A stretch of DNA of 64,000 nucleotides from an archaeon (GTDB lineage: Archaea > B1Sed10-29 > WALL01): NCBI GenBank assembly GCA_042584585.1, contig JBHOSQ010000001.1, forward strand, positions 3,508-67,507, read 5' to 3'. Positions 1 through 64,000 of the stretch are shown piece by piece. Position 1 is the first letter of the stretch. Every line of letters begins with the position of its first letter. The translations under genes were made by a program, and so were the position numbers. Below the pieces are notes generated by a model. The model saw only the letters and a list, made by a program, of their open reading frames with translations, ran no database searches and had not been told where the DNA came from.

Positions 1-2453
1 CACGCATTTTCCAAAAGGGTTTTTCTTTCTTCGGGCTGGAGCGCGTTGTAGTCCTGGTCGAGCTGGTTTTTCTCCCGGTCGGTGAGCTCAGTGTATTCCT
101 TGCCGTCGAACGCATCTTTGCTGTACTGCTTTAGTGCGATGCGCTTTACCGCGGCTGCCACGGATTCATCGGCATTGTTCAGCGCCGCATCAAGGTCAAC
201 GCGGTCTCCGGTGCGCTTGTACTGCAGCACCTTGTCCCCCTCGGCATCGTCAACAAAGCGGAATTTGCACATTCTCACGTCGTCGCCGAGTGTGTCTTCG
301 GAGAACTTTTGGATGAACTCCCCCTTGTCGAACTGCTTTAAGTATTCCTCGAATTGTGTCTTGGCTTCAGGCGTGGCCCTGCTTTGGCGGAGCTTTAGCC
401 TAAGCAATGAAGCGAGTTCCCTGTGATCAATCTCAACTTCGGGAGCGACTTCGCCTTCGGTCGCGCGCTTGAGCAGAGTGGCCGCGTTCCTGGCGTCCCG
501 TATAAACCCGGCGTAGACCGTATCCTCTGCGACAGTGGAGTAAGCCGCGTGGTTAGCTAGGTCGCTGTCCAGCTCTTCGCGCTTGTCTTCGTCGCTTTGC
601 GCCATCAAGCGGCCCTTGCCGACGGCGACGCTCGACTCTTTCTTCAGCGCGTCGGTGAGGTTTTCCCAGTTCCTGCCTCCGGCGGTGCGCCACAACAAGT
701 TGTACAATTCTTCGTGCCTGCCGCCCGCGTCAATCATTTCGCGGACTCTTTGGTGCAGCTGCTCCGGAGTGAGCTCTTCTTCGGGTTCGGGCTCAGCTCT
801 ACCTGCCGGCGCTGCTTCCACGAAGCCCCTGATGAGCTGTATGTCCCTCTCGTGGTCTGCGATGCGCCGGTTGATTTCCCATTGGCGGTCCTCAAGATCT
901 TTCTTACGTTTGGTCAGGTCGGCTGGCACCGGGGTGCCTTCTTCGACTGCGGCAATCTCACGGTTGACGCGCTGGATTTCACTGGCCACTGCTGCTCTTT
1001 GTTGCGGAAGCCCCAGAGGAGCTACAGCTTCACCAAGGTTTACGCCGACGTAGGCCTCATGGGCTCCTGCGTCGACTTCCTTTGCCTTTGCGTGGGCGCG
1101 GTGGTCCTCAAGCGTTTGTTTCTTGAAGTTTTCGACTGCGTTCTTCAGGCGCACACCGCCCAACTTGTTGAGCGTAGCCTCAATTTCGGGCTGCTTGTCC
1201 CTCAGTGTGGCGAACAAGTTCTTGAGCTTGCCCCGCTGGCTGTCGTCCAGGTCTTTCACGTCGTAGCTGCCCGTGCTGTCGATGTGGTCCTTCAAGTCAA
1301 ACATAAACGCAAGCTTCTCTTTTTCTTCGTCACCAAGCGAGTCCCATACATCCGTCAGATCGTCACGCGTATCGCTAAGTTTTTGGGTGGCTTCGTAAAA
1401 AGCTTGTACCTGGTCCTTGGACAAGTCATCGACATTAATGCTTGCGAGGCCGGTCATCTTATCTAGCTCAGCCTTGACTTCCGCCTTGAACTGGTCGGAC
1501 TGCTCTTGGCCAAACCCACCTTCCTCGGAAAGCGATTTCAAGCTTTCCTCTGGGTTCGTCTCGATGCCCTCGGCCTTTATTGAGTCAGCGAGGTTCTGGA
1601 ACTCGCGCGAAGTAATGTGTGACTTGGGGTCACGCTCGTCAAGCGCCTTGTCTACCAGCCCATTAATGAACTCGTTCGTAAACCTCAGGCCAGTAGCGCT
1701 TGAATGCGTCTCTGGTGCGATGCCCCTGTCCTGCAGGAACTTTTTGTGAATATCAGTGACTTTGGCGCGCTCGTCGGGGGTGAGGGAATCAAGGTTAATC
1801 TCTTTTTCAAGGACCGCGTGAATATGCGCCTGGTTTTCTTCTGAGAGGCCAATGGCGGCAGCGGCCTGGTCCCCACTGTTCTGGAGGATTGCGCTCACAC
1901 CGCGTTGCCCTGCCGTGTTCACGTTCTGCATGTAGTCCACAAGGTCCGTGAGCACAGTGCCCGTGGCGTTGGGAATCTGTTCCGGAGAAAACGATAAGTT
2001 ATTCCTCTGCCATTTTTCCATCGCGGCCTCGACCGACCCTGAGTTCTTAAGGTCCTTGAACAAGTCGTTCATTACAGCGCCATCGACTTTTTGACCAAGG
2101 TGATAAGCATCTTCAGGCCTAAGGTTCTGCTTGATGTTCAGCAGGTGTGCCATGTCGCTGCTGAGCTTGTTCTTGCCGGATTTGACATAAACCGTCCCCA
2201 AGTAAGAGTGCGTTTGCTTCGTTTGGAACAGCCTGTCCGGCCGAGCCCAGAACTTATTGCTGTCGTAATCAATTTTGGTGCTCTTGACGCGGTTCTCCAT
2301 TATGTGGGCGAGCTTGGTTAGCTGATGAATCTCTGCGTCACTTGCACCCCGCTTTCGCGCGGAACGCAAGTTCTTCTTCGCAATGTGTTTGTAGTACTTA
2401 GCCGCCTTCCAGTTTTTTCTCGCCTTAACCGCTTCTTTTTTGAATAAGGGCAT
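1..2453 (-). CDS. Large acidic, coiled-coil-rich hypothetical protein (N-terminal ~817 aa; C-terminus lies beyond window start)
   Basis: Absent from the ORF track because no stop codon falls in the window. Manual reverse-strand translation from ATG 2453..2451 (MPLFKKEAVKARKNWKAAKYYKHIAKKNLRSARKRG ... LQPEERKTLLENA) stayed open to position 1 with the expected 2 leftover nt. GAGGTG Shine-Dalgarno-like motif lies 7 nt upstream. Listed + strand ORFs here (e.g. 597..1466) are its antisense frames. No known domain recognised. Confidence 0.6.
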   Translation of the reverse strand, partial: MPLFKKEAVKARKNWKAAKYYKHIAKKNLRSARKRGASDAEIHQLTKLAHIMENRVKSTKIDYDSNKFWARPDRLFQTKQTHSYLGTVYVKSGKNKLSSDMAHLLNIKQNLRPEDAYHLGQKVDGAVMNDLFKDLKNSGSVEAAMEKWQRNNLSFSPEQIPNATGTVLTDLVDYMQNVNTAGQRGVSAILQNSGDQAAAAIGLSEENQAHIHAVLEKEINLDSLTPDERAKVTDIHKKFLQDRGIAPETHSSATGLRFTNEFINGLVDKALDERDPKSHITSREFQNLADSIKAEGIETNPEESLKSLSEEGGFGQEQSDQFKAEVKAELDKMTGLASINVDDLSKDQVQAFYEATQKLSDTRDDLTDVWDSLGDEEKEKLAFMFDLKDHIDSTGSYDVKDLDDSQRGKLKNLFATLRDKQPEIEATLNKLGGVRLKNAVENFKKQTLEDHRAHAKAKEVDAGAHEAYVGVNLGEAVAPLGLPQQRAAVASEIQRVNREIAAVEEGTPVPADLTKRKKDLEDRQWEINRRIADHERDIQLIRGFVEAAPAGRAEPEPEEELTPEQLHQRVREMIDAGGRHEELYNLLWRTAGGRNWENLTDALKKESSVAVGKGRLMAQSDEDKREELDSDLANHAAYSTVAEDTVYAGFIRDARNAATLLKRATEGEVAPEVEIDHRELASLLRLKLRQSRATPEAKTQFEEYLKQFDKGEFIQKFSEDTLGDDVRMCKFRFVDDAEGDKVLQYKRTGDRVDLDAALNNADESVAAAVKRIALKQYSKDAFDGKEYTELTDREKNQLDQDYNALQPEERKTLLENA

Positions 2454-2507
2454 CAAAAACCACCTCAATGCAAAAATCTTTGCACAAATAGTTAGGGGGG
2501 ACTGCAC

Positions 2508-18141: not shown

Positions 18142-18287
18142 ACCCCGACCATAACCCCGGGTCCGGTGTACTGCAGCACAAACAGGATTAGCACTGCGAC
18201 GAAAACAATTACCATTAGCGCCGCAAGCGGCTTGTCCCACCACGCGGGACCTTCGTCTTTTTTTGTTTTCAGTGGAACAACTGCCAT
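18138..18287 (-). CDS. Candidate 49-aa single-TM micro-protein
   Basis: Below the ORF-track threshold. Manual translation gives MAVVPLKTKKDEGPAWWDKPLAALMVIVFVAVLILFVLQYTGPGVMVGV. ATG lies 6 nt after the stop of the zinc-ribbon ORF. Confidence 0.3.
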   Translation of the reverse strand: MAVVPLKTKKDEGPAWWDKPLAALMVIVFVAVLILFVLQYTGPGVMVGV

Positions 18288-18292
18288 ACAAA

Positions 18293-18463: not shown

Positions 18464-19389
18464 GGATAAATCCCCTTCCTCATCAAAGCGTCGTTCAAGT
18501 CCTTCTTCATCGCCAACGCAGCCTCACGCGCCGCAACGTCAAACTCCCCGCCCTTCTTCTGGTAAGCAAAAATAATCCCGCGCGAAGAATTCACGATTGC
18601 GCCGTAGCCGTCGTCGTTGAAGCACGGCATGGTGTCGTCCGCGCCACCACCCTGCGCGCCGTAGCCCGGCACGAGAATCGGGGCCTTCGGCATCAACAGC
18701 CTCAAGCGCGCCGCCTCTTGGGGGTAAGTCGCGCCCACGACCGCGCCGATTGAAGAATAGCCTCTGGCCCCCACAACTTCCTCGCCCCACTTGTCCACCA
18801 ACTTGGCCATGGCCTCGTAAACAGTCGTGCCTTCCTGGAGGCGCCGGTCCTGCAGCTCACCGCTCGATGGGTTGCTGGTCTTGACGAGAAGGAAAGCGCC
18901 TTTGCCGTTCTTTGCCTCCTCGACGAACGGCTTCACGCCGTCGCTCCCGAGATAGGAATTGACCGTCAGCGCGTCCAGTGTGTGGACGGTTGCGCTGCCC
19001 TTGATTGTCTTGACCTCGCCGAGGAAGGCCTTGGCGTACGCCGTGGCAGTGGAGCCAATGTCGTTGCGCTTCGCGTCGCCGATTACGACGAGGCCGTTGT
19101 CGTGCGCGTACTTGCACGTGATTTGAAACGCCTCGATGCCGTACGGGCCGTAAGCCTCGTAAAACGCCATCTGTGGCTTGACAGCGGGGACAACGCCCTT
19201 GATCGCGTCAATGATTTTTTTGTTGAACGCCACGAAACTCGCGGCGACTGCCTGCGGGGTGTCGCCGAACTTCGCGACACGGTCCTGCTTTATCGAGTCT
19301 GGAATCTGGGAAATGCGCGGGTCCAACCCAACGACGCTCGGGTTCTGCTTTTCCTCGACCGCGGCGAACAACCGGTCAGCGAAATTCAT
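18457..19389 (-). CDS. pyrF: Orotidine-5'-phosphate decarboxylase (long type)
   Basis: VVGLDPR, GDAKRNDIGSTA and a PGYGAQGG-type C-terminal motif. ATGA overlap with the pyrE stop. Confidence 0.9.
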   Translation of the reverse strand: MNFADRLFAAVEEKQNPSVVGLDPRISQIPDSIKQDRVAKFGDTPQAVAASFVAFNKKIIDAIKGVVPAVKPQMAFYEAYGPYGIEAFQITCKYAHDNGLVVIGDAKRNDIGSTATAYAKAFLGEVKTIKGSATVHTLDALTVNSYLGSDGVKPFVEEAKNGKGAFLLVKTSNPSSGELQDRRLQEGTTVYEAMAKLVDKWGEEVVGARGYSSIGAVVGATYPQEAARLRLLMPKAPILVPGYGAQGGGADDTMPCFNDDGYGAIVNSSRGIIFAYQKKGGEFDVAAREAALAMKKDLNDALMRKGIYPW

Positions 19390-20045
19390 TTGCTCGCCTC
19401 CGTATACTCGCGCACCTTGCCCGCGAGCTCCGCGTCCAACAGCCCCTCGGACTCAAGCGCGGCGACGATATCAAGCACGTCAACAATGTAATGCACGTTA
19501 AGGCCCTCGGCCTTCAGCTTTTCGATGCCACCCATCTGGCGGTCCACCAAGAAATAAACGTCCGAAACAGGATGGCCGTTGCGCTCCATCGCGGCCTTTG
19601 CCTTTAGGTTCGAGCCGCCCGTCGACACCAAGTCATCCACAAGGACGGGGGCCATGCCGTCACGGATTACCCCCTCAATATCCTTTCCGGTCCCGTGCTC
19701 GCGTGACTCGCCGTTAAGCGCTTCCTTGCGAATGTACGCCACCGGGAGCTTGGCCTTAAGGCCCACGACGCTCGCGAACGGGACGCCCGCGGTCGGGACC
19801 CCGACGAGAGTGCATTTTGGGCCGCACTCGTTCAGCACCAATTCCTTGTACGCGTCAGTAATCACGTCGAACTGCTCGGGATAGCTCGGCACAGCGCGCA
19901 AGTCAATGTAGTAAGGCGACTTCTTTCCCGAAGTAAGGGTAAAGTCACCGAACTTGATTGCGTTGCTCTCGAACAATGCCTTCGCGACCGTTTTCGCAAG
20001 CTCTTTTTTCTGTTCTTCCCACGACAATTCAAACACCTCTATCAT
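19386..20045 (-). CDS. pyrE: Orotate phosphoribosyltransferase
   Basis: FGDFTLTSGKKSPYYIDLR and PRPP motif VLVDDLVSTGGS. Track start 20069 trimmed to ATG 20045. Confidence 0.9.
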   Translation of the reverse strand: MIEVFELSWEEQKKELAKTVAKALFESNAIKFGDFTLTSGKKSPYYIDLRAVPSYPEQFDVITDAYKELVLNECGPKCTLVGVPTAGVPFASVVGLKAKLPVAYIRKEALNGESREHGTGKDIEGVIRDGMAPVLVDDLVSTGGSNLKAKAAMERNGHPVSDVYFLVDRQMGGIEKLKAEGLNVHYIVDVLDIVAALESEGLLDAELAGKVREYTEASK

Positions 20046-21330
20046 AAGCTTCGACGCCGGCCGGGTCACCGAACCCGCCGTCGAACACGACGCTGCCGTT
20101 CACGATTGTGTGCGTCGGCACGCCCTGCAATTGCAGCCCGTCGTACGGCGTCCAGCCGCACTTGGCAACAACGTTCTCATTTGTAATGGTTTGCTTTGCG
20201 TCCATGTCGACAACGACCATGTCCGCGGCAAAGCCCTCGCGGATCTCACCCCTGCCCTTCAGGCGGAAGATTCTCGCGGGATTAGTGCTCATGCGCGCCA
20301 CCATTTCCGGCAGCGTCTCGAGGCCCTGGTTCACCGCGTCCAAATGCAAGGGCAACAGCGTCTCGACGCCAGGCACCCCGGACGGCGCGTGCCAGTAGTC
20401 CCGGTCCTTTTCTTCCTTGGTGTGGCCGGCGTGGTCGGTGCACCAGCACGAAATCAGCGCGCGGTTCTCCCAAAGCGCCATGCGGTCCTCGTGGCTCCGC
20501 AGCGGGGGGTTCATCTTCGCGTAGTTCTTCAGGCGGTTCATGTCCGTGTCCTCAAGGAACAAGTGGTGCGTCGTGGCCTCGCACGTGATTCGGCCGGCCG
20601 CCCTTCGGATTATGTCCAGTTCCTGGCGCGTGCTGATGTGGCAAATGTGAATCCTGTTCCCGACCTCCTTGGAAACAATCGCGGCAAGCGAAGCGCCCTC
20701 GGCGGCAACGACGTTCCTCCGGATTTTTGTGTGCACAATCGGGTCGGCCTCGCAGGCCTGTTTCGCCTCCGCAGTGAAAGTGTGGATTAATTCGTTGTCT
20801 TCCGCGTGCACGGTCACCAAGTGCCCGCCGACACGCGCGGCATGGAAAACGTTGTACAGGTCGCCCGCGTCCGGGACCAATAAGTCACCGGTCGAAGACG
20901 CCATGTATACCTTGACCGACGCAACACCGGTTACGTCCGATATTTCGTCCAGGTTGTGCGCGGTCGCGCCAAAGTGAAACCCGTAGTTCACGAGGCTTTT
21001 TCCGGCGACGGCGTCGCGCTTCCTGTCCAGGAGCAGGGGGCTCGTTATGCTGGGCTGGTTGTTTGGCATGTCGAGGACCGTTGTCACGCCGCCCTTTGCC
21101 GCGGCGCGGGACCCGGTCTTCCAGTCCTCTTTGTATTCTTCTCCCGGCACGCGAAAGTGCACGTGCGGGTCAATGACGCCGGGCAGAACGATTTTGCCGC
21201 TGGCGTCAATTGCTTTGTCGCCTTTCAGGCCTTTGCCGACTTTTTTGATTGTTCCCTTGTCGCACAGCACATCGGCCGCAACGAGCTTCCCGCCCATGAA
21301 CGCCCTGCCGTTCTTGACGACTAAGCTCAA
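20029..21330 (-). CDS. pyrC: Dihydroorotase
   Basis: VVKNGRAF...LPGVIDPHVHFRVPG plus downstream His/Asp metal ligands. The track N-terminal extension overlaps pyrK. TTG 21330 overlaps the pyrK stop (CTTTGA); ATG 21297 is an alternative. Confidence 0.9.
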   Translation of the reverse strand: MSLVVKNGRAFMGGKLVAADVLCDKGTIKKVGKGLKGDKAIDASGKIVLPGVIDPHVHFRVPGEEYKEDWKTGSRAAAKGGVTTVLDMPNNQPSITSPLLLDRKRDAVAGKSLVNYGFHFGATAHNLDEISDVTGVASVKVYMASSTGDLLVPDAGDLYNVFHAARVGGHLVTVHAEDNELIHTFTAEAKQACEADPIVHTKIRRNVVAAEGASLAAIVSKEVGNRIHICHISTRQELDIIRRAAGRITCEATTHHLFLEDTDMNRLKNYAKMNPPLRSHEDRMALWENRALISCWCTDHAGHTKEEKDRDYWHAPSGVPGVETLLPLHLDAVNQGLETLPEMVARMSTNPARIFRLKGRGEIREGFAADMVVVDMDAKQTITNENVVAKCGWTPYDGLQLQGVPTHTIVNGSVVFDGGFGDPAGVEAYDRGV

Positions 21331-46927: not shown

Positions 46928-47041
46928 TGGGCGTGCCGAGATTTGAACTCGGGACCTCCGGTTGTCTCCGGCTCGCGGCCGAATGTCTGGAACGCTGCCA
47001 TATAAGACCGGCGCTCTGAAACCAGGCTAAGCTACACGCCC
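46928..47041 (-). tRNA. tRNA-Ile (anticodon TAT) with a 37-nt intron at the canonical 37/38 position
   Basis: Manual fold: acceptor GGGCGTG/CACGCCC, A73, D stem GCTT/GAGC, anticodon stem CCGGT/ACCGG, spliced loop CTTATAA, T arm CCGAG-TTCAAAT-CTCGG. Intron at 46964..47000 has 3-nt bulges flanking a central helix (CUU/GAG) plus an inner GGC/GCC helix. CTTTTTAAAAAC box lies 30 nt upstream. Confidence 0.8.
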
Positions 47042-48578: not shown

Positions 48579-49838
48579 ATGGGCATGCATGAGTTCAGGC
48601 AGCGTTACGGCAGGGGCATAAGTGCATCACCCATCGAATTGCATTCCCGCATCGAGGGATACATTGGGAACTTGTCAAGAAAAGGCACGCAGCGAGCCAC
48701 GCGGGACATAGAGCTCATTCGTGACATCCAAGACTATGACAGGCGAGGAACGCCTTTGGATTATATCACGCTTCAGGCCCACCTCGTTGAGGAAGCTGGG
48801 ACACGTGACGGCGATGCGTTAAAGCCCTACGCCAACACTTTTTCCAGCCTCTGCAGGAAACAAGATTTTTTCACTGGTCAGGAGAAACAGACCCCGATTG
48901 TCAAGGGCAAGGCGTACATACACTTTAGCGGGGTTTGTAGCAGGAATCTCTTGAAGCGCATTCCGGATTTGCTGAAAAAGAAAAAAACGCCAATCACGAT
49001 TCCTGAGATGATGGAGTCGCTCTCACTGGAGAACAAGAGCTACGACAAGAGCTCACTAATCACAGCACTCAATGTTTTGGACGTGCTGGGCGTGGTGAAC
49101 AAGCTACCGTTGCACTCGACCGCGGGAAAGGCAAAGCACTTCAGTTACGTGCACGCGGATTACGCGATGCCGTTGCCCACCGAAAACTGTCCGTTTTCAA
49201 TAATGCAGGCGTTGTACGACGGGCCAAAAGGAAAAACTGACATCACGCGCCACGCCTCGATGCAGAAGTTTGAGTTCCTCCAGCAGTACACCCCCACTAC
49301 ACCTTACAAGGGAGCGGATACGCAGGTCGCGGAAATAAACCACGCTATCAGCGGGCTGGCCGACGAGGGACTTATCACGTTCAAGAAAGCGCCCCCGTCA
49401 AAGAAAGGAATCAAGTTCCTTTACACACTCACGCGCACAGGCAAGCGGCTCATGAAAAAAGCCTTGGAGACCGAAGAACTAAGCGAAGAGTTCCGCCAAA
49501 AGCTGCTTGGGACCAAGCAATACGAAAAGCTAACCAAAATGGAAAAGGGCCGTGTTGCAGAGATCACCAGATGGGCCAACATAATGATGACTGCCGAGCA
49601 AATAGCCGAGCCCAGTGAAGGCGGAACCAGGCGGAAGAGAGGGACGGGCGCACTCGCGGTCGCCAAAAAGCTGAAGATGAGCAGGAGGTACGTCCAAAAC
49701 GTGATGGAGATTGGCTCGCGCCCAGCCACCCTAACCCGCTCAGGGCCAGAGCGGCTGGAACGGATACTATTTCACATCCCCTCCCCAGAGATTAAGCTGT
49801 GGCTCACTGACTACTTGAAGAAAAACAAGATGCTATAG
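48579..49838 (+). CDS. Hypothetical protein with two or three winged-helix-like modules
   Basis: IPEMMESLSLENKSYDKSSLITALNVLDVLGVVNKL and IMQALYDGPKGKTDITRH...ISGLADEGLITFKKAPPSKKGIKFLYTLTRTGKRL look like MarR/PadR-type wHTH patterns. No exact family recognised. Confidence 0.6.
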   Translation: MGMHEFRQRYGRGISASPIELHSRIEGYIGNLSRKGTQRATRDIELIRDIQDYDRRGTPLDYITLQAHLVEEAGTRDGDALKPYANTFSSLCRKQDFFTGQEKQTPIVKGKAYIHFSGVCSRNLLKRIPDLLKKKKTPITIPEMMESLSLENKSYDKSSLITALNVLDVLGVVNKLPLHSTAGKAKHFSYVHADYAMPLPTENCPFSIMQALYDGPKGKTDITRHASMQKFEFLQQYTPTTPYKGADTQVAEINHAISGLADEGLITFKKAPPSKKGIKFLYTLTRTGKRLMKKALETEELSEEFRQKLLGTKQYEKLTKMEKGRVAEITRWANIMMTAEQIAEPSEGGTRRKRGTGALAVAKKLKMSRRYVQNVMEIGSRPATLTRSGPERLERILFHIPSPEIKLWLTDYLKKNKML

Positions 49839-55757: not shown

Positions 55758-55832
55758 GGGCTCGTAGCCTAGTCTGGATAAGGCACCGGCCTTCTAAGCC
55801 GGCGATCGAGGGTTCAAATCCCTCCGGGCCCG
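55758..55832 (+). tRNA. tRNA-Arg (anticodon TCT)
   Basis: Manual fold: acceptor GGGCTCG/CGGGCCC, D arm GCCT-AGTCTGGATA-AGGC, anticodon arm CCGGC-CTTCTAA-GCCGG, T arm GAGGG-TTCAAAT-CCCTC, discriminator G. Confidence 0.92.
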
Positions 55833-55852
55833 CTGAGTTTCTCCCTATTCTG

Positions 55853-55876
55853 GGGGGGCGTCGGTTGACGCCCCCC
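55853..55876. terminator. G-run hairpin (family member) after tRNA-Arg
   Basis: GGGGGGCGTC-GGTT-GACGCCCCCC, followed by TTTTTGTTTTT at 55886..55896. Confidence 0.55.
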
Positions 55877-55971
55877 AAATAGAATTTTTGTTTTTAAGGG
55901 GCTAGTTTTGCAAAAATGGCGTAACCTTTATAAATGAAAACCCCTTTTTAAAGCTCGGGTATGGTGGGATT

Positions 55972-56259
55972 ATGTCTCTTGGAAGTTTTGAGACACGCCT
56001 AGTGGCGTCAGCGAAGCTAACATCCATGGAAAAATATGGGTGGGCTTACAACGAAGACTTATTAGTCGTAAAGGGAATGCTGGGTGACGAAGTCGAAATA
56101 ATCGACGACGGAACCGGCATAATCAAAATACGCGATAGCCTCGCAGAGTATACAGTGCACATACGTGACTACCAAAAAAAGATTGAGTCCACCTCCATAC
56201 CCACTGCGCCGGAGCGCGAGGGCAAGTACATTTCGGTGTGGGACGTCGCGAACCACTAA
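55972..56259 (+). CDS. Small hypothetical protein
   Basis: 95-aa ORF. CCCTTTTTAAAGC box lies ~24 nt upstream. No domain recognised. Confidence 0.5.
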   Translation: MSLGSFETRLVASAKLTSMEKYGWAYNEDLLVVKGMLGDEVEIIDDGTGIIKIRDSLAEYTVHIRDYQKKIESTSIPTAPEREGKYISVWDVANH

Positions 56260-56270
56260 CCCTTGAGTGC

Positions 56271-57923
56271 CTAGTCCATGTCGTCTATTCTCTTTAGCTT
56301 GAGAGCGGGACGCAACTTCTTCCCAGCCAACAACTTTTCCAATTCTTTTTCAGTGGGTGGGCGAATCTCTTCCCGCAACTTACGCCCCAATCTCGAGGAA
56401 GTGTACAACCCCTTCTTTGCTTTCTTGAAGTAGCCCTTATTCGTGTGGTGTTCGACAAGAATACGCAGAGCCTTAAGAGGGGACATACCTGCTTTGTTTG
56501 CCACGTGCATGTACGGAAGCGGCTTCTCGTCCATGAAAGATAATAACAGCTCTGCCTCGTCCTGTGGCAGCCGGCGCGTCTGTAGTTCTTTCAGCTCTTC
56601 CGCAGCCTTGAGGTCTGCCTCCAACTTCTGGGCCAGTTCTTCCGCCAGTTTTTTCTCTGCCGCGAGCTTCTCCCTCGCAGCCGCTTTCTCTGTTTTAAGC
56701 TTCTCCACCTCAGCCTTCTTCGCAGCCCTAATTTGTTCCTTCTTCAACTTCTCTGCCGCTTTAAGCTTCTGCTTTTCAGCTTTCTCCGCAACCTTAAGCG
56801 CTTGCTTCGCCAACCTATCCCCCATCCTGATGGCCTTGGCCTTCCCTTTCACAGCCTTCGCCTCTGCCTTGAGGAGCAACTCTTCCAGCCTCGCTTCAGA
56901 CTTGGTTTTTTCCTTGACTCGGTTCTTGTTGTAGTCCACAGCAGCCTTGAATCGCTTTGCATACCTCTCGTCCATGCCCTCAATCACTCGCGTGACTACC
57001 TGGAGTGACTCACCAACCCGCCTACCCAAAAACGTGACGGGGATGCCATCTTTGCGAGTAACCAACTTCGAATCCCACCCCCCAACAGAAAGTTCGTTCG
57101 CCAAGACGCGCAAATAATCCTCGAGCCGATCTGCTTTGATTTGCCTCAGCTTCTTCTCGTGCAGTGCGTTGTTTTTCGCGATGACTTTTGCAAACTCTTT
57201 TTTGTAATCGTCGTCCGCCAAGTCAAACACGTCAGAAATGTTTCCCTTAGCCATGTCAAACTCTTCGGAAAGAGGTTGGAGTGGGAAACCATCCTCGCGC
57301 GGAGTCGTGCCCGGATTCCAACCCCCCTTACTGACTTCTTTCTTCAAGTGAACAAGGAACTTGTCCAGCTTCTCGCGAGTCTTGGGCGTAAGCTCCCGAG
57401 CAAGACCCTTTATCTTCTTTAGTTCCCCAGGAGTCGGCAAAACCGCTTGGCGCTTAAGGCCGTGCGCAGTCACGTAATACAGCTTCCCCGTTTTCCTGAC
57501 GACCGACTTCTTGGAAATCTTTATGTGGCGAATAACCGTAGAGCTGGCAGTGGCGTACCCCCGCTTGGAAAAATAGTTGCCCGCTTCCGTGAGGAGGTCC
57601 TGCAAATTGTAGCCCTTGCCTTTTTCCATGAACGGCAGGATTTCTTCCGCAGGGCCGCGGGGATACTCCTTGTCACCAAGCTGAGTGTGAATATCGAGAT
57701 TGCGCTTGCCTTTTGGCGTAAACGTGTGCACGCCTTTCTCGACGACCAAGTCACCGTTCACCTTCATGTTGTCAATGGCGATATCAATCTTTTTGGCGGC
57801 CTCGGCGTCACGCTCAGCCACCCACGCCTTAATCTCTTTTCGCTTGAAAGCCGGAGAAATCTTTCCGTACTCGTACACCAGCCGCCGTGGACTGTGCTTG
57901 CCAACCGTTTTTTCGCCTTTCAT
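56271..57923 (-). CDS. K/E-rich hypothetical protein with winged-helix-like modules (paralogous to parts of the 1060-aa neighbour)
   Basis: 550 aa. Its ATG overlaps the upstream stop (ATGA). The N-terminal block LVYEYGK...IKAWVAERDA...GVHTFTPKGKRNL...LGDKEYP...MEKGKGYNLQDLL...GKLYYVTAHG parallels KIYEFGR...IRWIKQRDA...SVYTFTEKGKRRIL...LGKKRVP...MAEGKGYSNRWLL...GRFYYLNERG in the 1060-aa protein. Two internal GGW...DG(F/I)P repeats. AEKxKK coiled-coil stretch. Confidence 0.7.
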   Translation of the reverse strand: MKGEKTVGKHSPRRLVYEYGKISPAFKRKEIKAWVAERDAEAAKKIDIAIDNMKVNGDLVVEKGVHTFTPKGKRNLDIHTQLGDKEYPRGPAEEILPFMEKGKGYNLQDLLTEAGNYFSKRGYATASSTVIRHIKISKKSVVRKTGKLYYVTAHGLKRQAVLPTPGELKKIKGLARELTPKTREKLDKFLVHLKKEVSKGGWNPGTTPREDGFPLQPLSEEFDMAKGNISDVFDLADDDYKKEFAKVIAKNNALHEKKLRQIKADRLEDYLRVLANELSVGGWDSKLVTRKDGIPVTFLGRRVGESLQVVTRVIEGMDERYAKRFKAAVDYNKNRVKEKTKSEARLEELLLKAEAKAVKGKAKAIRMGDRLAKQALKVAEKAEKQKLKAAEKLKKEQIRAAKKAEVEKLKTEKAAAREKLAAEKKLAEELAQKLEADLKAAEELKELQTRRLPQDEAELLLSFMDEKPLPYMHVANKAGMSPLKALRILVEHHTNKGYFKKAKKGLYTSSRLGRKLREEIRPPTEKELEKLLAGKKLRPALKLKRIDDMD

Positions 57924-60900
57924 TTCTTCGCCTTCTTTTTTGTTTCTTTCTTAATGGCTTCTTTTGCTAGTCTTACTGCGTCAGCTTCCCCACAGTGAGC
58001 CGTGGCTTTTATGAAGCCAGTCAGTGAGAGTACGGCTTTACTGGGGCTTTGCTTGAGGAAGTAACGGGCCTGAACGTCGATGTTGTACTGGACTCCGGGC
58101 GACAAGTCCTTCAGCGAAAGGAGTGGGAGGGCCTTCCCGAATTCCGCCCTGTCCGGCTTGTCCTCATCCGCAAAGTCGTCGCGAGGGGGTCTCTTCTTGT
58201 CTTCCTCTTCTTTCTGCCTCGCCTTCATCTCCGCCCAGAGGTCTTCTTCTGTAGGCCCTCCTTCTTCAACCGTGGCCTCGACCAACGGCTTTTCTATCAC
58301 AACCCCTCTTTCGGCAAGTTGGGCTTGCGCGTTAGCCACAACTTTGTCGGCGGCCGCTTTGTTGGAGCTAGTGTAAAACGTGTACAATTTGCGCCGCAGC
58401 TTGTTCAGCCCGGCAACAGTGGGATTCCCCCCAAGGAACTTCAAAGCCAATTCCTCAACTTCGGGCATCAGCAAAGCCCGGTTGTGCAGGATCAGCCGTT
58501 CATCAACGACAAACCGCATGTTTCCCTTCTTGAATCCAGCTCGGAGCCGCTCAAGGAGTTCTTCCTCGGAAGTGCTGATGAATTCCTTCCTCGATGCGGC
58601 GGGGCGCTCAACCGGCTCGCCCAAAATCTCTTTTATCTCCCACGGCGAGGCAACAGACTTCTGGCACTCAATGCCCCGCTCATTCAAGTAATAAAAACGC
58701 CCTTTCTTCTTGAACAAAGACGTGCGGCCCCCCGCATAGCCGCCAATCAAATTCAGGAATTTCGGGAAACCCTCCTCCTCGTTTTTGAATTTCTTGGCCT
58801 CTTCTGTATAGTGCTTGAGCAAGTTCTCCAAAAGCCATCGGTTTGAATAGCCCTTCCCCTCCGCCATCAACAACGCGACTTTTTCGGAGAAGGTCTCGGG
58901 AACCCGCTTCTTGCCGAGGCGCTCGTGAAGCAGTATCCTGCGCTTGCCTTTTTCAGTGAAGGTATACACGGAACCAACCTTGGACTTGGACAGCTCTCCT
59001 GTTTTTCCAACCATTGTCTGGAGGTTATGAGTGACCGTGCCGTCGCCGAAAGTCGCGTCACGCTGTTTTATCCACCGTATTAACTCAAACGGCCGGAAAG
59101 GCAGTTTGTGGGTGCGGCCGAACTCGTAAATCTTTTGCGGGGTAGGCCACAAGTTGAAATGGAGTGGCGCGCTGACGTCGGTGAGCCCCTTCATTAGTTT
59201 CGCTTCTTTATTGGCTTTTTTCGCTGCCGCGGCCTTCACCTTCTCCACCCGTTGTTTCTCCCGCTCTTCGTCACTCATCTGTTTTTCCAAGCGCTCCTGT
59301 TCCAGGGCCTTCTGTCTCTCCGCCCGGTCCTTCTGCCTCGCCAGCTCCTGTTCCGCCTTCTCCACTTCCTTCTCCGCTTTTTTCCTTGCCTGTATTTTTT
59401 CGTTCGCGTCCGCCGCCAGGTTAAAGCGGTCCCATTGCTCCGGCGACATAGTAGACAAGTAGTCCGTGAGCGTTTTGGTAGCCCTGCCCTTTTTCCTCGA
59501 CAAAAACGAAAGCGGAAGACGGTCGGCACGCGGCTTCGAGGCAATCTCCCATCCATCGCCACTCGCCGAGTCCTCTATGTAACCAAGCACATCCTCCACA
59601 AACTCTGCGATTTCCTTTTGCTTCGCCAGAAGCTTCTGCCGCTTCGCCTCTTGCTTGCGGAGGGCGGCTTGCTGCTTCTCAAACTCCCTCTGCGCCTCGA
59701 TCTCCTGGCGCTTCTTTTCTTTCTCGGCGAGCTTCCTCGCTTCTTCTGCCAGCTTATACTCCCGTTTTTGCCTGGCGCGCTCCTCCCTTTCTTTCCTGAG
59801 CCGCTCCGTTCTCTCCTGCTTTCTTTGCTGTTTACGCTTCTCCGCCATTAAGCGCCTGGTCTCGGCCCCCCTCCGCTTCTCTTCTTCGGCCGTCTTCTTG
59901 GCCAATTGGCGCTTAACATCGTCCGCTGCCTTTTTCCGCAGCTCTTCTTCCAGCAGCTCTTTCTCCCATTGCTTAATCCTTTTCTGGTTCTCCAGCCTAT
60001 GGCGCTCCCGCTGCTTGTCCCAATTGTCTTCTCCCGCCATCCACTCCTCCTCGCCAAACGGGGCTTCATCAAAAATTTCCAGGAGCTTAGATGACACGTA
60101 CGGACGCAACTGGTCCCTCTCCCTCATGGTCAGCCCGGAAACCCCTTTCTTGAACGACACGTTGTAATCCGCTTCGGTTGGGTCGAGGCGCGAAATAAGC
60201 TTAATCCGCACATAAGGGTTGAGCAGCGGCAGCACAGCAAGGCCACGCCGCAAACCCCCCAATGCTGCCATTTTTACAAAAGCCCCTGCGTCAAGATTGA
60301 ATTTATCGGCAATCGTCCTGTCGTCGCTGCTTACTTTCTCCCGCTTTTGGAGCAGCGGCCGGTCAAGCGGAAAATACCGGTAACGCTTGACAACCCCGGA
60401 CTCCGAGTCTTCCTCCAAGCCCCACTGCCTGCGGATTGTCTTGATGTCTTCCTGGAGGCCTTTGTCAAAGTCCTCGAAGCGGGAGTACTTCGGGTTGAAA
60501 AGTTGGTAAAGCGTGCGGTAGTTGATGCCCGTGTACTCTTCCGCGAGCTTCAGCAAGTAACGGTAGCTGACCCGCTGGGGAGAGTTGCCGAACACCCTGA
60601 GGTGCAAGTTGTGCAAGTCCTCGCCAATGTCCTCAGGGCCCTTGACGCGCTTAATCACGCGAACCGCGTTTTGAATGCTCCTGACCTCGTACTTGGCCGG
60701 CTTGGTCTTGATTAGCTTGTCCGAAAACCCACCCACGCGAAGCGTGTCATGAAGGCCCTTAAGGTCCGGAAGCGCCGCCTCAAGGGCATTTTTTTTCGAG
60801 CCAAAAACCCTGAGCGCGCTCCCCATCCCAAAATCATGGAAATGCTGTTGGGTAATTTCACTTACCTGCAGGCCCTTGTCCCGCACAAGCTTCCCCACAA

Positions 60901-61102
60901 GCATGCGCACCGCCGTCTTTCTCTGGTCGTCGTGCGTCCAGAAGCCGTCCGGAAGGTCCGCTACCTCCCGCTCAGTTTTCTCCCCGGCCTTCGTCTTGAG
61001 GTAGTCCTTAATCAGTGGCCGCAGCTCGTCTGGGTGGACCTTAGGGAACTTAAAGCCTTCGGGGCGGCCGCGCTTGGGCCCCTCAGTGGGTTCCTTAGGC
61101 AT
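57920..61102 (-). CDS. Giant (1060 aa) K/E/R-rich hypothetical protein with coiled-coil stretches and winged-helix-like modules
   Basis: Long uninterrupted ORF. Contains ~130 aa of charged heptad-like sequence (EKRKQQRKQERTERLRKEREERARQKREYKLAEEARKLAEKEKKRQEIEAQREFEKQQAALRKQEAKRQK). Shares modules with the 550-aa protein. No signal peptide, TM or P-loop seen. Leaderless ATG 61102 lies ~27 nt from TCTTTATATACC. Confidence 0.75.
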   Translation of the reverse strand: MPKEPTEGPKRGRPEGFKFPKVHPDELRPLIKDYLKTKAGEKTEREVADLPDGFWTHDDQRKTAVRMLVGKLVRDKGLQVSEITQQHFHDFGMGSALRVFGSKKNALEAALPDLKGLHDTLRVGGFSDKLIKTKPAKYEVRSIQNAVRVIKRVKGPEDIGEDLHNLHLRVFGNSPQRVSYRYLLKLAEEYTGINYRTLYQLFNPKYSRFEDFDKGLQEDIKTIRRQWGLEEDSESGVVKRYRYFPLDRPLLQKREKVSSDDRTIADKFNLDAGAFVKMAALGGLRRGLAVLPLLNPYVRIKLISRLDPTEADYNVSFKKGVSGLTMRERDQLRPYVSSKLLEIFDEAPFGEEEWMAGEDNWDKQRERHRLENQKRIKQWEKELLEEELRKKAADDVKRQLAKKTAEEEKRRGAETRRLMAEKRKQQRKQERTERLRKEREERARQKREYKLAEEARKLAEKEKKRQEIEAQREFEKQQAALRKQEAKRQKLLAKQKEIAEFVEDVLGYIEDSASGDGWEIASKPRADRLPLSFLSRKKGRATKTLTDYLSTMSPEQWDRFNLAADANEKIQARKKAEKEVEKAEQELARQKDRAERQKALEQERLEKQMSDEEREKQRVEKVKAAAAKKANKEAKLMKGLTDVSAPLHFNLWPTPQKIYEFGRTHKLPFRPFELIRWIKQRDATFGDGTVTHNLQTMVGKTGELSKSKVGSVYTFTEKGKRRILLHERLGKKRVPETFSEKVALLMAEGKGYSNRWLLENLLKHYTEEAKKFKNEEEGFPKFLNLIGGYAGGRTSLFKKKGRFYYLNERGIECQKSVASPWEIKEILGEPVERPAASRKEFISTSEEELLERLRAGFKKGNMRFVVDERLILHNRALLMPEVEELALKFLGGNPTVAGLNKLRRKLYTFYTSSNKAAADKVVANAQAQLAERGVVIEKPLVEATVEEGGPTEEDLWAEMKARQKEEEDKKRPPRDDFADEDKPDRAEFGKALPLLSLKDLSPGVQYNIDVQARYFLKQSPSKAVLSLTGFIKATAHCGEADAVRLAKEAIKKETKKKAKK

Positions 61103-61105
61103 TAA

Positions 61106-61163
61106 TTAGTTGTAATGTCTAGACGGTATATAAAGATTAGGGTTTTAGTTGTAATGTCTAGAC
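61106..61163. promoter_or_regulatory. Perfect 19-bp direct repeat bracketing the TATA box of the 1060-aa gene
   Basis: TTAGTTGTAATGTCTAGAC occurs at 61106..61124 and again at 61145..61163. Each copy contains the palindrome GTCTAGAC. GGTATATAAAG lies between them. The distal copy overlaps the stop codon of the 596-aa gene. Confidence 0.7.
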
Positions 61164-62948
61164 AAAATCAGGCTTTTTTCCCGCCACTTCTTCCTGGAGC
61201 TGGTACTTGGCGCTGCGGGGGTTCACCAGGTAGTTCGCGAGATGGCGCAGCTGGAACCACATGGCTGACTCTTCTTTTGCGTCTTTGTGCTTCTTCTTTT
61301 CTTCGTCAGTCATCTGGCTTTCGTCCCGGCTCCTCCCCAACTCCGCGTGTTTCATCGAGGCCTCGTGCAGGCGCTCTATAAAGTTGTCATGCGTCAGCGG
61401 CCTGATTTTGATCTTGAGCTTGACAAAATCACCAAACAAGCCCTCAATTTTGTCGAACGCGCGTATCTTCTCTTGGTTGTTTGAGTTAATCCGGGGGTGG
61501 TCCATAATCTTGAACAAGCGCAGTGCCTCGTAGCACTCTACATCGGTCACGGGCCGCTTCCCATCCTCCACTTCCTCAACGGCTTCCTTTTTTCCAGCAA
61601 TGCCGCGCAGCAAAAACCGCATGCTCCCGAAGCCCTTCACGTCCTTCTTCGGCAATGTCTTGGGGTCAGTGGACTCCATCACGCCATGGTAATTGTTTTT
61701 CACGAACTCTTTTTCCTTAAGGGAAAGCTCTTGCCTCGCGGCAACTTTTTCGGTGATGTCCAGCAGCTTGTTTAACGGCCCGGAATTGACAGTGGGCGTG
61801 TCCCCCAGAAGCAGACTACCAGGGTCCTCTTCCGGACTGGCCCAGCGGTGCGGCCTGCCCGGCCGCCTCGTGGAAACTTGCTCGTCGTCCTTGTCGTCCT
61901 TGTCGTCCTTGTCGCCTTCGGACGGGCTGCCGTCCTGCAACCCACCCCCCTCCTCATTCAGCTTGAGCACCATGGGCTCCGAGCGGGTTACATCCATCGT
62001 GATGCCCTCTTCCTTGAGCTCCGCGGCTATTGCGTCCATGATGGCATTGGTGCGCCTTATTGAGTTGCTCCTGAACCCGTCGCCCACGCGCTTGGAGACT
62101 GTGGCGGTATCGTCCGGGTGCTCTCGGATGTAGTCCGCGCCGATCTTAGTGAGTATTCCGGGCAGTCGCGGGTCCGAAACCCTCTGCCCAGCATGCCTCC
62201 CAAGCTTTTGCTGGCGGAGGTCCTTCATGTTGTCACCGCGAAAAAGCTTCTCCACATATGCAGCAAGCCCCTTGCCCCCCTCAACTTTTGGCTTTTTGGG
62301 CATCCCGACCAATCGCAGCAGTTCCTTGTGGGCGCTGACGTCCCTCATGAGATCCGGGAACGTGAACGACTTCACGCCGCGCACGAGGTCCATAAGCTCC
62401 GGGTGCTTTTGCTTGTGCTCGTCAATCCACTTTTTTATCTCGCTGTCGCGCTTGAGCAATTCAGTGGAGTATCCCCCGCCGGCGCCGACCTCAATGTCCG
62501 CCGTCTTTCCCGGGCCGTGCATGAAGCAGTTCGCGAAGCGCGTCGCGTCGGCCTCCAAGTGGTTTTCCGTAATTGCCTTGTACTCGTCCTTCAGGGCCTC
62601 GAACTTCGTCACGGGCCTGGTCTCCATGGGCTCGATTGGCACGTGCGAGATTATGAGCTTCCGCAGCTGCATGCCGTCCGGCGTCAAGTGGTAGTAGCCG
62701 TCCCACACCGCCCTCTTGACGAAGGGCTTGGGCATGGCGGCCTGGTTTGCCAGGGCCGCGTTTAGCTCGTCGGGAGTGATTTTGAAGTGCTTCGAGACCG
62801 CGGCATAGATGTCGCCGGTGGAGTGCGCCCTTTCTTCCTTCATGAAGTTGACTGCCGCCTCGAAAGGGGTCTTGGGGGTGAACGGGCTGCCGCGCTCGAA
62901 CCTCTTCCGGGTGTCGGGCCTCCACGCCTTGTCGAGTTCCTTGACCAT
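61158..62948 (-). CDS. Hypothetical 596-aa protein (paralogous segment shared with the next-but-one upstream gene)
   Basis: FANCFMHGPGKTADIEVGAGGGYS...KKWIDEHKQKHPELMDLVRGVKSFTFPDLMRD aligns with FINLFHDGVEGTVNKQYPPTGMGS...RQWIEKHKQHQPLVDLVTGKREFAYPELMKG of ORF 63459... Acidic KDDKDDKDDE linker. Leaderless ATG 62948 lies 27 nt from TCTTTTATAC. Confidence 0.7.
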   Translation of the reverse strand: MVKELDKAWRPDTRKRFERGSPFTPKTPFEAAVNFMKEERAHSTGDIYAAVSKHFKITPDELNAALANQAAMPKPFVKRAVWDGYYHLTPDGMQLRKLIISHVPIEPMETRPVTKFEALKDEYKAITENHLEADATRFANCFMHGPGKTADIEVGAGGGYSTELLKRDSEIKKWIDEHKQKHPELMDLVRGVKSFTFPDLMRDVSAHKELLRLVGMPKKPKVEGGKGLAAYVEKLFRGDNMKDLRQQKLGRHAGQRVSDPRLPGILTKIGADYIREHPDDTATVSKRVGDGFRSNSIRRTNAIMDAIAAELKEEGITMDVTRSEPMVLKLNEEGGGLQDGSPSEGDKDDKDDKDDEQVSTRRPGRPHRWASPEEDPGSLLLGDTPTVNSGPLNKLLDITEKVAARQELSLKEKEFVKNNYHGVMESTDPKTLPKKDVKGFGSMRFLLRGIAGKKEAVEEVEDGKRPVTDVECYEALRLFKIMDHPRINSNNQEKIRAFDKIEGLFGDFVKLKIKIRPLTHDNFIERLHEASMKHAELGRSRDESQMTDEEKKKHKDAKEESAMWFQLRHLANYLVNPRSAKYQLQEEVAGKKPDFV

Positions 62949-62986
62949 TGAATAAATTAATGGTGCGCGGGTATAAAAGAATTAGT

Positions 62987-63436
62987 CTACCTGTACTCGT
63001 TTTTAATCGCCCAGCTGTTGCCCCGCTTTTCCATGTGCTTGGCAACAAGGAACTTGAAGTCTTCGTGAACGTTCTTGAGCCCCGCGAGGCCGGGATACTT
63101 CCCCAACAGGCGCACCATAAATTCATCCGCCTCTTCAGGAGTGTAATTCCGGGTGAACTTGTAGTACCCACGAACATACGCACCCCTGCCGCCCTTATCG
63201 TTACGGGCTTGGCTGATTGCCTTATTCATAATCTCCTCTTTTGACGGCTCCACCATGGCGTCAGGATGGCCAAACTCCACACAAAACGCGTTTTTTCCCT
63301 TGACCGCAAAAGTAGAAAACATCCGTGCAAACCCCTTATGCTGCTCGGGGTTCATGCTCTTGAACTTGGAGCCATGCACGCTCTTGGCGACCGTGTAATA
63401 ATGCTCCCGCGCCTTCAGCTCTTTTTTGCTAACCAC
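62987..63436 (-). CDS. Hypothetical 149-aa protein
   Basis: ORF with a GTG start. GGTGGG SD-like motif lies upstream. Probably co-transcribed with the gene at 63459... No domain recognised. Confidence 0.55.
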   Translation of the reverse strand: MVSKKELKAREHYYTVAKSVHGSKFKSMNPEQHKGFARMFSTFAVKGKNAFCVEFGHPDAMVEPSKEEIMNKAISQARNDKGGRGAYVRGYYKFTRNYTPEEADEFMVRLLGKYPGLAGLKNVHEDFKFLVAKHMEKRGNSWAIKNEYR

Positions 63437-63458
63437 TTATCCCACCAATAAGCACTTG

Positions 63459-64000
63459 CTATAACGGCGACTTAGTTTGCGTGTGCTTTTTCTTGACCCA
63501 GTTCACGACAACGCCGCGCAAGTACTCCCGCTGGTCGCCCCCTTCATAAGCGCCTGGGAGCGAGGACCTCCCGGCCTTTACCACCAACCCGTTGAGCATG
63601 TTTCTCCGCCGCTCAGCGTCCATGGCAAATCCACCTGCAACGTGGGAGGTGCCAGCCACCTTTTCCTCGTAGAGTGCGCGAATTGCCTCGTTGTACTTTT
63701 CGTCCATGTCCCACTGCTGTGGCGCGATCCCGACCCGCATTTTTTCCTGGGGCTTGCTGATTATCTCCACCAATTCAGGGTGCGGCTTGGCGCCCTTCAT
63801 TAGTTCGGGATACGCGAACTCGCGTTTCCCCGTCACCAAGTCCACGAGCGGCTGGTGCTGCTTGTGCTTCTCAATCCATTGCCTCAAGCCCTTCCTCTTC
63901 GCGGTGGCGCGGCTCCCCATGCCCGTTGGGGGATACTGCTTGTTCACCGTGCCCTCGACACCGTCATGGAAAAGGTTAATGAATGTTTGTGCCGACTTCT
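63459..64000 (-). CDS. Hypothetical protein, C-terminal part (N-terminus beyond window end); paralog of a segment of the 596-aa protein
   Basis: The track lists 63459..63947 from an internal GTG. The same frame stays open to 64000 (KSAQTFINLFHDGVEGTVNKQY...), and the extension continues the alignment with the 596-aa protein. Confidence 0.6.
   Translation of the reverse strand, partial: KSAQTFINLFHDGVEGTVNKQYPPTGMGSRATAKRKGLRQWIEKHKQHQPLVDLVTGKREFAYPELMKGAKPHPELVEIISKPQEKMRVGIAPQQWDMDEKYNEAIRALYEEKVAGTSHVAGGFAMDAERRRNMLNGLVVKAGRSSLPGAYEGGDQREYLRGVVVNWVKKKHTQTKSPL

Follow-up and report, generated by a model that had tools for sequence, protein, structure and literature searches.

One end of the archaeal DNA stretch analyzed here (64,000 nucleotides, hereafter the window) poses a question: what do several giant, lysine- and glutamate-rich proteins, encoded side by side, do for the cell that makes them? 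Five co-directional minus-strand genes fill window positions 56271-64000, as the initial annotation had described: p550 (56271-57923), p1060 (57920-61102), p596 (61158-62948), p149 (62987-63436) and an edge gene (63459-64000 and beyond the window end), of which the 3' part, at least 179 amino acids (aa), is visible. We show that the large proteins contain helix-turn-helix (HTH), winged HTH (wHTH) and HNH_repeat-type domains, that four of the five genes are linked by common modules, that their locus is conserved among the nearest relatives of this region, metagenome-assembled genomes (MAGs) of Candidatus Diapherotrites/Iainarchaeum (DPANN), and that the giant genes are under purifying selection. 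Judging from domain content and gene order, the cluster probably organizes or moves DNA, and we tentatively favor the idea that the giant proteins bridge or coat DNA in a polyvalent fashion, as accessories of a HerA-type DNA translocase.

The window belongs to a contig of 122,693 nt with locus tags ACFLQ2_, on which p1060 is ACFLQ2_00325. The region from 55.7 to 64.0 kb holds an arginyl-tRNA synthetase gene (ArgRS, plus strand), tRNA-Arg(TCT) (55758-55833, plus strand), p95 (55972-56259, plus strand) and then the five minus-strand genes. p95, which encodes an acidic 95-aa protein (pI 4.9) and lies tail-to-tail with p550, fell outside the coordinates 56271-64000 given in the initial annotation. 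An ATGA overlap couples translation of p1060 and p550, and p1060 and p596 each have their own TATA box (61125-61135 and 62969-62981, both minus strand), so that, as had been noted, there is more than one transcription unit. p149, which is small and basic and has no detectable relatives, is probably co-transcribed with the edge gene across a 22-nt gap with a GGTGGG ribosome-binding-like motif; the likely units are edge gene-p149, p596 and p1060-p550. The cluster proteins are all basic (pI 8.4-10.2), none has a predicted transmembrane segment, and the GC content of their genes (52-58%, against 54.6% window-wide) bears out the earlier view of a host-like, native composition.

Domain make-up and paralogy of the giant proteins

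BLASTP among the cluster proteins aligns p550 residues 16-173 with p1060 residues 658-828 (E=6e-15), the ~170-aa collinear block recognized from the outset, as well as p550 264-386 with p1060 499-618 (E=6e-8) and p596 134-218 with edge-gene residues 2-84 (E=1e-11), a common segment also noted before. The putative N-terminal wHTH of p596 and of D_308, the edge gene's orthologue (38% identity) in the related Diapherotrites locus L001, matches the second wHTH of the p550/p1060 block by hhalign (probability 81%, E=1.3e-5). This homology, together with the shared blocks, links four of the five cluster genes through common modules. The original picture of a mutually related set thus holds for four genes by BLASTP, hidden Markov model (HMM) and hhalign comparison but not for p149, which has no module in common with the other four. 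Two further open reading frames (ORFs) suggested as relatives, 1..2453 (here 1..2507, minus strand) and 48579..49838, both proved unrelated on comparison.

A ~90-aa module is present in 12 copies (~88 aa per unit) in D_1282, a 1282-aa protein of L001. An HMM built from D_1282 alone finds it in p550 at residues 180-261 and 265-344 (independent E-value (iE) 2e-13 each; 56892-57386; this and all cluster features below lie on the minus strand) and in p1060 at residues 502-580 (iE 7.5e-16; 59363-59599), confirming a ~70-aa module seen earlier twice in p550 and once in p1060. D_1282 exceeds the Pfam cut-offs for HTH_Tnp_4 (45.6 bits, cut-off 27), HTH_23 (35.8, cut-off 24.6), HTH_72 (34, cut-off 27) and Homeodomain (33, cut-off 22.9). 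Because its copies pass these cut-offs, we assign the module to the tri-helical HTH class; the window proteins by themselves have no Pfam match above cut-off, and their HTH-clan membership is transitive, via the D_1282 module HMM. The AlphaFold2 (AF2) model of p550 residues 1-350 has a mean predicted local distance difference test score (pLDDT) of 74.9; its multiple sequence alignment consisted of paralogous fragments, and one row joins two p1060 segments, which affects alignment depth only. Within residues 180-350 (pLDDT 85-94) each module is modeled as a long helix, a loop, an HTH and a second long helix that continues into the next module, with helices 215-222/226-234 and 296-303/307-315 packing against the long flanking helices. 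A G-G-W motif is invariant in the loop of each module, and exposed positions of the recognition helix are variable in the alignment and frequently Arg or Lys. A kinship between this module and the second half of the wHTH block, suggested by MAFFT, was rejected by hhalign (probability 0.1%).

The N-terminal part of p550 holds a winged helix and a second, probable one. The first (residues 12-82, 57678-57890) is modeled at pLDDT 86-91 with H-H-H-beta-beta topology; the second (residues 91-161, 57441-57653), the one linked by hhalign to p596, has a wHTH-like topology at pLDDT 40-58. In a Foldseek search of the PDB the top matches of the first are all wHTH DNA binders (AspA, PadR, MarR, DtxR and the FOXN1 forkhead), with target-normalized template modeling (TM) scores of 0.41-0.68, root-mean-square deviations of 2.8-6 Å and E-values of at least 0.07. 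p1060 carries the pair paralogous to p550 residues 16-173 at its residues 658-828 (58619-59131), and p596 combines its N-terminal wHTH (residues 22-109, 62622-62885) with an M4 module (residues 129-215, 62304-62564) paralogous to the edge gene and a unique C-terminal half; its residues 32-82 match Mrr_N weakly (E=8e-4, 19.9 bits against a cut-off of 29.5).

Long charged stretches run through the same proteins: an ER/K-rich one of 141 aa in p1060 (residues 360-500, 59603-60025; 58% charged, 15% hydrophobic, 1 Gly+Pro), another at p1060 residues 561-640, and one in p550 (residues 345-450, 56574-56891; 48% charged, 21% hydrophobic, 2 Gly+Pro), beyond which p550, the last giant gene, encodes a C-terminal wHTH-like unit. 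Across these stretches charged residues make up 48-61% and hydrophobic ones 12-21%, and Gly+Pro number just 1-2 in 80-141 residues, a composition that fits ER/K-type single helices or weak coiled coils. The initial proposal of wHTH-like modules between charged stretches is therefore borne out by AF2, Foldseek, the Pfam HTH matches reached via D_1282 and the composition of the spacers, whereas its statement that no motif could be recognized gives way to domains assignable to HTH, wHTH and HNH_repeat types. Whole cluster proteins gave no significant match in Pfam, PHROGs, NCBIfam or PADLOC, and PDB sequence profile searches with the module, the p1060 N-terminal domain, the wHTH pair and the p596 and p95 families returned nothing significant. 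Word-indexed searches with p550 and p1060 were overwhelmed by K/E-rich low-complexity matches, and the module profile matched nothing there, missing even D_1282.

The best-conserved part of p1060 is its N-terminal domain (residues 1-350, 60053-61102), whose AF2 model from a 3-sequence alignment reached a pLDDT of 53.6 and was left out of the fold search. With a profile of this domain, HMMER was run exhaustively over 1.84 billion cluster representatives and gave 56 matches. Five extend over a long part of the profile and come from Diapherotrites MAGs: p1060, P0002 and P0003 (both of the L001 locus), P0005 and P0020. The other 51 cover profile positions ~45-112 only, several times per protein, and belong to Pfam HNH_repeat (best E=2.4e-47) or Frankia_peptide. 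In the reciprocal direction, an HMM of 238 HNH_repeat-type units, some of whose source proteins are Pfam-positive for HNH_repeat, detects a single unit in each giant-protein N-terminal domain, at residues 53-114 in p1060 (iE 1.3e-10; 60761-60946); the Pfam HNH_repeat model itself does not report p1060 at E up to 1. By these reciprocal profiles p1060 residues 53-114 are probably one unit of HNH_repeat (PF18780, 'homing endonuclease associated repeat'), but family members carry 3-8 tandem units in 240-700 aa, whereas p1060 has a single unit inside a 350-aa domain specific to the giant proteins.

The short-span matches form a sizeable family in their own right (P0006-P0057; 240-700 aa with 3-8 tandem ~70-aa units of the pattern W..ENR..A...LV..L.K...IT..DF...GL.GLL..Y..S...AL..AGY). 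Among 53 matched proteins scanned, the giants P0005 and P0020 included, 9 match HNH_repeat and 14 match Frankia_peptide, and from these few matches we conclude that the Pfam models under-cover this repeat family.

At its other end p1060 has a tail domain of ~75 aa (residues 985-1057, 57932-58150) that it shares with three proteins of L001. The tail HMM scores p1060, D_1029 and D_655 at 108-132 bits and finds D_347 at an iE of 4e-4; the tail is possibly a common docking element.

The ATPase-p95 frame and the promoters of the cluster

Outside the window's own genome, relatives of the giant proteins are confined to four Diapherotrites (Iainarchaeota) assemblies or contigs and invariably occupy the same place in the chromosome; with these, and with an HNH_repeat-type unit in the N-terminal domain, the label 'ORFan' given initially was too strong. 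Pattern scans of JGI metagenomes and IMG/VR with the N-terminal domain found no relatives, and the alignment of the ~90-aa module is too variable for pattern scanning.

The related loci share a common plan. L001 reads DUF87/HerA ATPase (787 aa) - 347 - 308 - 655 - 1029 - 1282, followed by a convergent 95-aa gene, a variable islet, tRNA-Arg and ArgRS. L003 has a DUF87 ATPase (794 aa), then 335 - 878 - 1128 and a convergent 110-aa p95 homologue, and L004 has 935 (cut by the contig end) - 1424 and a convergent 103-aa p95 homologue, with ArgRS 2.5 kb away. In L006 a p95 homologue (87% identity) lies tail-to-tail with a D_1282-like gene, and in L007 (GC 40%), a distant relative, a p95 homologue lies directly tail-to-tail with an ATPase 56% identical to D_787, without giant genes. 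p1060 is 47% identical over its full length to D_1029 (P0002), and p550 is the positional counterpart of D_1282 with its 12 modules. The ATPase is upstream of the giant genes and co-directional with them in both loci that show that side, L001 and L003, where the two ATPases are 61% identical (54-61% across loci), and p95 homologues lie tail-to-tail at the other cluster end in all five related loci. What is conserved is a frame of ATPase and p95, within which the giant HTH genes form an expansion that varies, with module numbers from 2 to 12. The same ArgRS neighborhood recurs in three genomes. As far as our limited literature search shows, this frame with its giant HTH genes is undescribed: what is new is the narrowly distributed arrangement, while the DNA-binding folds that compose it are already known.

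The ATPase (~790 aa) has intact Walker A and B motifs and a C-terminal winged helix, passes the Pfam cut-offs for DUF87 (59-72 bits) and HerA_C in L001, L003 and L007, and has no predicted membrane anchor. Its PDB relatives are hexameric HerA-type helicases, aligned over the ATPase core only, and it scores 47 bits on the NCBIfam HerA equivalog against a cut-off of 800. No NurA, Mre11 or Rad50 family member was found among its neighbors in L001, L003 and L007. Since the edge gene corresponds to D_308, and D_347 and the ATPase lie upstream of D_308 in L001, the window's own ATPase gene should lie just beyond base 64000.

Several observations concern the surroundings of this ATPase. The small gene D_127 lies near it in L001, but in the window its homologue (15184-15393, plus strand; 51% identity across 71 aa) is 40 kb away from the giant genes, so that gene order around the frame is not fully conserved. 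About 3 kb upstream of the ATPase in L001 (positions 1-702) lies an Orc1/Cdc6-like AAA gene (AAA_16, AAA_22, Cdc6_lid), and in this one genome the locus might lie close to an origin of replication. Among annotated proteins, the ATPase core has its closest homologue in a 389-aa protein on a plasmid of Haloplanus sp. HW8-1 (NZ_CP098519.1, 116089-117258; 33% identity, E=3e-50 by tblastn and 4e-68 by BLASTP), whose neighbors are a BREX-like ATP-binding protein, a GNAT protein and a PD-(D/E)XK nuclease plus helicase pair, surroundings that resemble a defense island; the plasmid locus has no other gene in common with the cluster.

The p1060 TATA box sits between two perfect copies of GTCTAGACATTACAACTAA, at 61106-61124 and 61145-61163; the chance expectation is 0.01 copies. 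The core of this putative operator, GTCTAGAC, is a palindrome found nowhere else in the window or in L001. D_1029, D_655 and K_1424 are preceded by the same operator-TATA-operator layout and J_1128 by a degenerate version of it; in all, four genomes have it. p1060-type genes thus appear to be controlled through a conserved palindromic operator pair around the TATA box, a promoter that could serve to find the regulator.

Comparison of p1060 with D_1029 gives a ratio of non-synonymous to synonymous substitution rates (dN/dS) of 0.33 at a dS of 1.17, next to 0.21 at a dS of 1.03 for ArgRS; across the giant genes the ratio is 0.28-0.33 at a dS of about 1, which identifies them as real genes under purifying selection.

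Candidate roles of the giant proteins

We propose that in each giant protein several independent heads that read DNA, namely winged helices, tri-helical HTH modules and the HNH_repeat-type unit, are mounted on rigid, highly charged alpha-helical spacers of 60-140 residues. A single molecule could then grip a number of DNA segments simultaneously or cover an extended tract, and the chromosome would be bridged, looped or stiffened as a result. Most likely the giant proteins would help to compact or segregate the chromosome, or serve in a similar DNA-handling step, as DNA-organizing adaptors or substrates of the ATPase translocase. Polyvalent binding is suggested by the many heads on rigid charged rods in basic cytoplasmic proteins, and the adaptor role by a location that stays the same, with p95 on one side and a HerA/FtsK-family motor that bears a winged helix on the other. 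Of the roles first put forward, a chromatin or nucleoid scaffold survives in so far as a DNA-organizing role stays the best reading, but in a different setting, between a HerA-type ATPase and p95; nothing was found in support of a cytoskeleton-like one.

Known systems offer partial precedents. The archaeal chromatin protein Sso10a, in which a wHTH is joined to a coiled-coil rod, bends, bridges or stiffens DNA with no apparent preference for sequence (PMC4941522), and it resembles the giant proteins in spacing DNA-binding winged helices by a rigid helical rod. Sso10a, however, is a ~10 kDa protein with one wHTH per chain and a rod made by dimerization, whereas the cluster proteins have 550-1424 aa, ER/K-type spacers and, in each chain, from 3 to 13 or more DNA-binding units, and no sequence similarity between the two was detected. 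In the segregation machine of Sulfolobus pNOB8, the wHTH protein AspA nucleates at a palindrome that precedes its own gene and from there extends along the DNA (PMC5120986). AspA is the top structural match of p550 winged helix 1 (5k5q, 4rs8 and 5k1y; probability 1.0, TM 0.63-0.68), although at a Foldseek E of at least 0.07 the match reflects a common fold class, with homology not demonstrated. The likeness extends to the palindromic operator pair upstream of p1060-type genes and to the motor ATPase encoded in related loci; unlike in the AspA-ParB-ParA system, this motor is of HerA/FtsK type rather than a ParA Walker ATPase, and Pfam and NCBIfam scans of the locus proteins found no ParA or ParB.

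The gamma winged helix of FtsK reads FtsK-orienting polar sequences (KOPS; PMC3384302), and the DUF87/HerA_C core with C-terminal winged helix of the ATPase formally resembles that motor-gamma arrangement. It differs in having no membrane anchor, in the absence of NurA, Mre11 or Rad50 partners from the loci, and in scoring far under the HerA equivalog cut-offs. Tandem HTH arrays such as Myb and homeodomain repeats or paired transposase HTHs also set tri-helical units head to tail, but D_1282 is distinguished by twelve ~88-aa units, long continuous helices and the invariant G-G-W loop, and Pfam finds no catalytic transposase domain in it. It is an extreme case of tandem HTH amplification in an archaeon, with 12 units per chain and continuous helices between them. 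As for SMC, MukBEF and Wadjet, no SMC, Muk or Jet family was found in Pfam, NCBIfam or PADLOC scans, and MukE/F and JetABCD gave only low-probability Foldseek matches (0.13-0.21).

In a more specific form of the idea, which we consider unlikely as it stands, the locus would encode a hitherto undescribed Diapherotrites DNA-handling machine in which the translocase with its winged helix, p95 and the giant poly-HTH proteins as 'tethers' compact or segregate the small chromosome. The charged helical rods would set a fixed spacing between DNA-binding heads, and 12-module arrays could read long DNA tracts module after module. If true, this would be a lineage-specific alternative to SMC, ParABS and SegAB systems. 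Archaeal chromosome segregation is in general poorly understood (PMC5120986), and for the tiny-genome DPANN archaea, in which DNA organization and partition are largely unknown, the locus is a concrete and testable candidate.

Several points weigh against a DNA-organizing role beside the ATPase. DNA binding and bridging are proposed from folds, and domains of the HTH and wHTH types can serve in contacts between proteins as well; for p550 winged helix 1, Foldseek E-values of at least 0.07 support the fold class alone. The functional tie to the ATPase is drawn from gene order, in two assessable loci plus the L007 arrangement, and the window ends inside the cluster, so that its ATPase gene is outside. 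The giant genes are absent from L007 and hence dispensable, which is unexpected for core chromatin, and their distribution, five assemblies or contigs, is very narrow, which limits the present significance of the cluster. A module number that ranges from 2 to 12 also fits a conflict system, as does a non-synonymous rate in the giant genes ~1.8 times that of ArgRS.

Such a conflict or defense system is the first alternative: ATPase and p95 would form a HerA-based core, and the poly-HTH proteins would be foreign-DNA sensors or decoys diversified in an arms race. The ATPase scores 84 bits on PADLOC HerA models and 69 bits on mad8, matches anti-phage HerA weakly in NCBIfam, and has several recently solved HerA-family entries among its PDB sequence matches; its closest plasmid homologue sits beside the BREX-like ATPase and nuclease-helicase pair described above, and the fast domain shuffling, the varying module number and the absence of giant genes from L007 would suit such a role. 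These HerA matches, however, span the generic ATPase core only and fall far under NCBIfam equivalog cut-offs. The ATPase is alone in matching PADLOC, through its generic HerA and mad8 models, and neither the five window proteins nor D_347, D_308 and D_453 match any model. Family scans found no nuclease, Sir2, TIR, protease or other effector domain in any of the loci. Defense islands are usually patchy and horizontally mobile, whereas here the ATPase (54-61% identity) and the place of the locus show the kind of conservation seen in housekeeping genes, and a dN/dS of 0.33, measured at whole-gene level, carries no sign of positive selection. We therefore regard a defense role as doubtful; were it correct, the locus would represent a new, effector-less type of HerA-associated system.

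It is rather improbable that the giant proteins are oversized, autoregulated transcription factors functionally unlinked to the ATPase and p95 beside them. HTH and wHTH are standard transcription-factor folds, and a palindromic dual operator around the TATA box of p1060-type genes is what repressor control would look like. An archaeal transcription factor usually has a single DNA-binding domain and some 100-300 residues, quite unlike proteins with up to 12 tandem HTH modules and 140-residue charged rods. Moreover, modules are common to every giant gene of the locus, and their place between ATPase and p95 persists in genomes that have diverged to only 54% identity in ArgRS.

The initial annotation also raised a domesticated mobile element inserted at tRNA-Arg. 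Were the cluster such an element, or an integrated provirus or plasmid, its HerA/FtsK-type ATPase would be a packaging or transfer motor and the HTH proteins its DNA binders. The tRNA gene does lie 440 nt from the cluster, FtsK/HerA ATPases do drive packaging and conjugation, weak tblastn matches tie the ATPase to the Haloarcula virus PH1 ATPase and to a terminase of a phage (24% identity, E between 2e-5 and 2e-4), and L001 has a variable islet with a HEPN/nucleotidyltransferase pair between tRNA and p95. The adjacency is incidental, however: in L001, 3.7 kb of other genes separate tRNA-Arg from the cluster, and the window, beyond which the far cluster end lies, contains no tRNA-derived repeat of at least 12 nt. 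Family scans of this and the related loci found no integrase, capsid, replication or conjugation gene and no virus or plasmid hallmark gene; IMG/VR, searched with two profiles, held no relatives, and a BFVD structure search returned generic small winged helices only. Codon usage is host-like (relative synonymous codon usage r=0.90, against a null of 0.94 +/- 0.02 with a minimum of 0.86; GC at third codon positions 0.70 against 0.72), and the ArgRS neighborhood recurs in three genomes with divergence that tracks the host. Host-like codons, a dN/dS of ~0.3, the lack of an integrase or att repeat, the lack of viral or defense matches and the conserved operator pair argue for a native locus, and the mobile-element explanation, now very unlikely, is largely refuted. 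That the ORFs are spurious or decaying products of K/E-rich low complexity, as their charged low-complexity stretches and the many shadow ORFs on the opposite strand might suggest, is refuted by conservation and purifying selection, with ORFs of 550-1424 aa intact in five assemblies or contigs, dN/dS of 0.28-0.33, conserved promoters and domains that fold confidently in AF2.

p95, the tRNA-Arg side and other features of the window

p95 homologues are 40-92% identical across L001, L003, L004, L006 and L007, and p95 has no match in Pfam, NCBIfam, PHROGs, PADLOC or PDB sequences. Its TATA box (55923-55934, plus strand) lies within a promoter-plus-gene block, window 55908-56264, that is 91% identical in nucleotides to L001 17357-17000 (93.75% for the p95 ORF alone), compared with 87% for tRNA-Arg and 75% for ArgRS. 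The p95 dS between window and L001 is 0.16, against 1.03 for the adjoining ArgRS, and about 0.7 between p95 and its L006 homologue; the conservation of the block ends exactly at the stop codon. This pattern points either to recent gene conversion or transfer of this unit alone or to a constraint at the nucleotide or RNA level; the hyper-conserved region has no match in Rfam.

Upstream of the p95 promoter, window 55852-55876 forms a hairpin, GGGGGGGCGTCGGTTGACGCCCCCC. Its counterpart in L001, GGGGGACGCCAATTGGCGTCCCCC, shows compensatory changes, and its upstream neighbor there is a NikR-like gene, not tRNA-Arg; the hairpin may accompany p95 as a terminator or as a palindrome to which a protein binds. 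The L001 islet (17449-20700), absent from the window, encodes a NikR_C protein, two paralogous small membrane proteins and the HEPN/nucleotidyltransferase pair, which indicates that the site beside tRNA-Arg is variable, although the giant-gene cluster is not mobile.

Elsewhere in the window, a second large unexplained ORF (3-2507, minus strand; at least 835 aa) runs off the window start and has no Pfam match. Positions 46928-47041 (minus strand) hold a 114-nt tRNA found by Rfam (56.6 bits) and missed by ARAGORN, presumably an intron-containing archaeal tRNA, and a tRNA-His at 8554-8629 is reported by ARAGORN alone.

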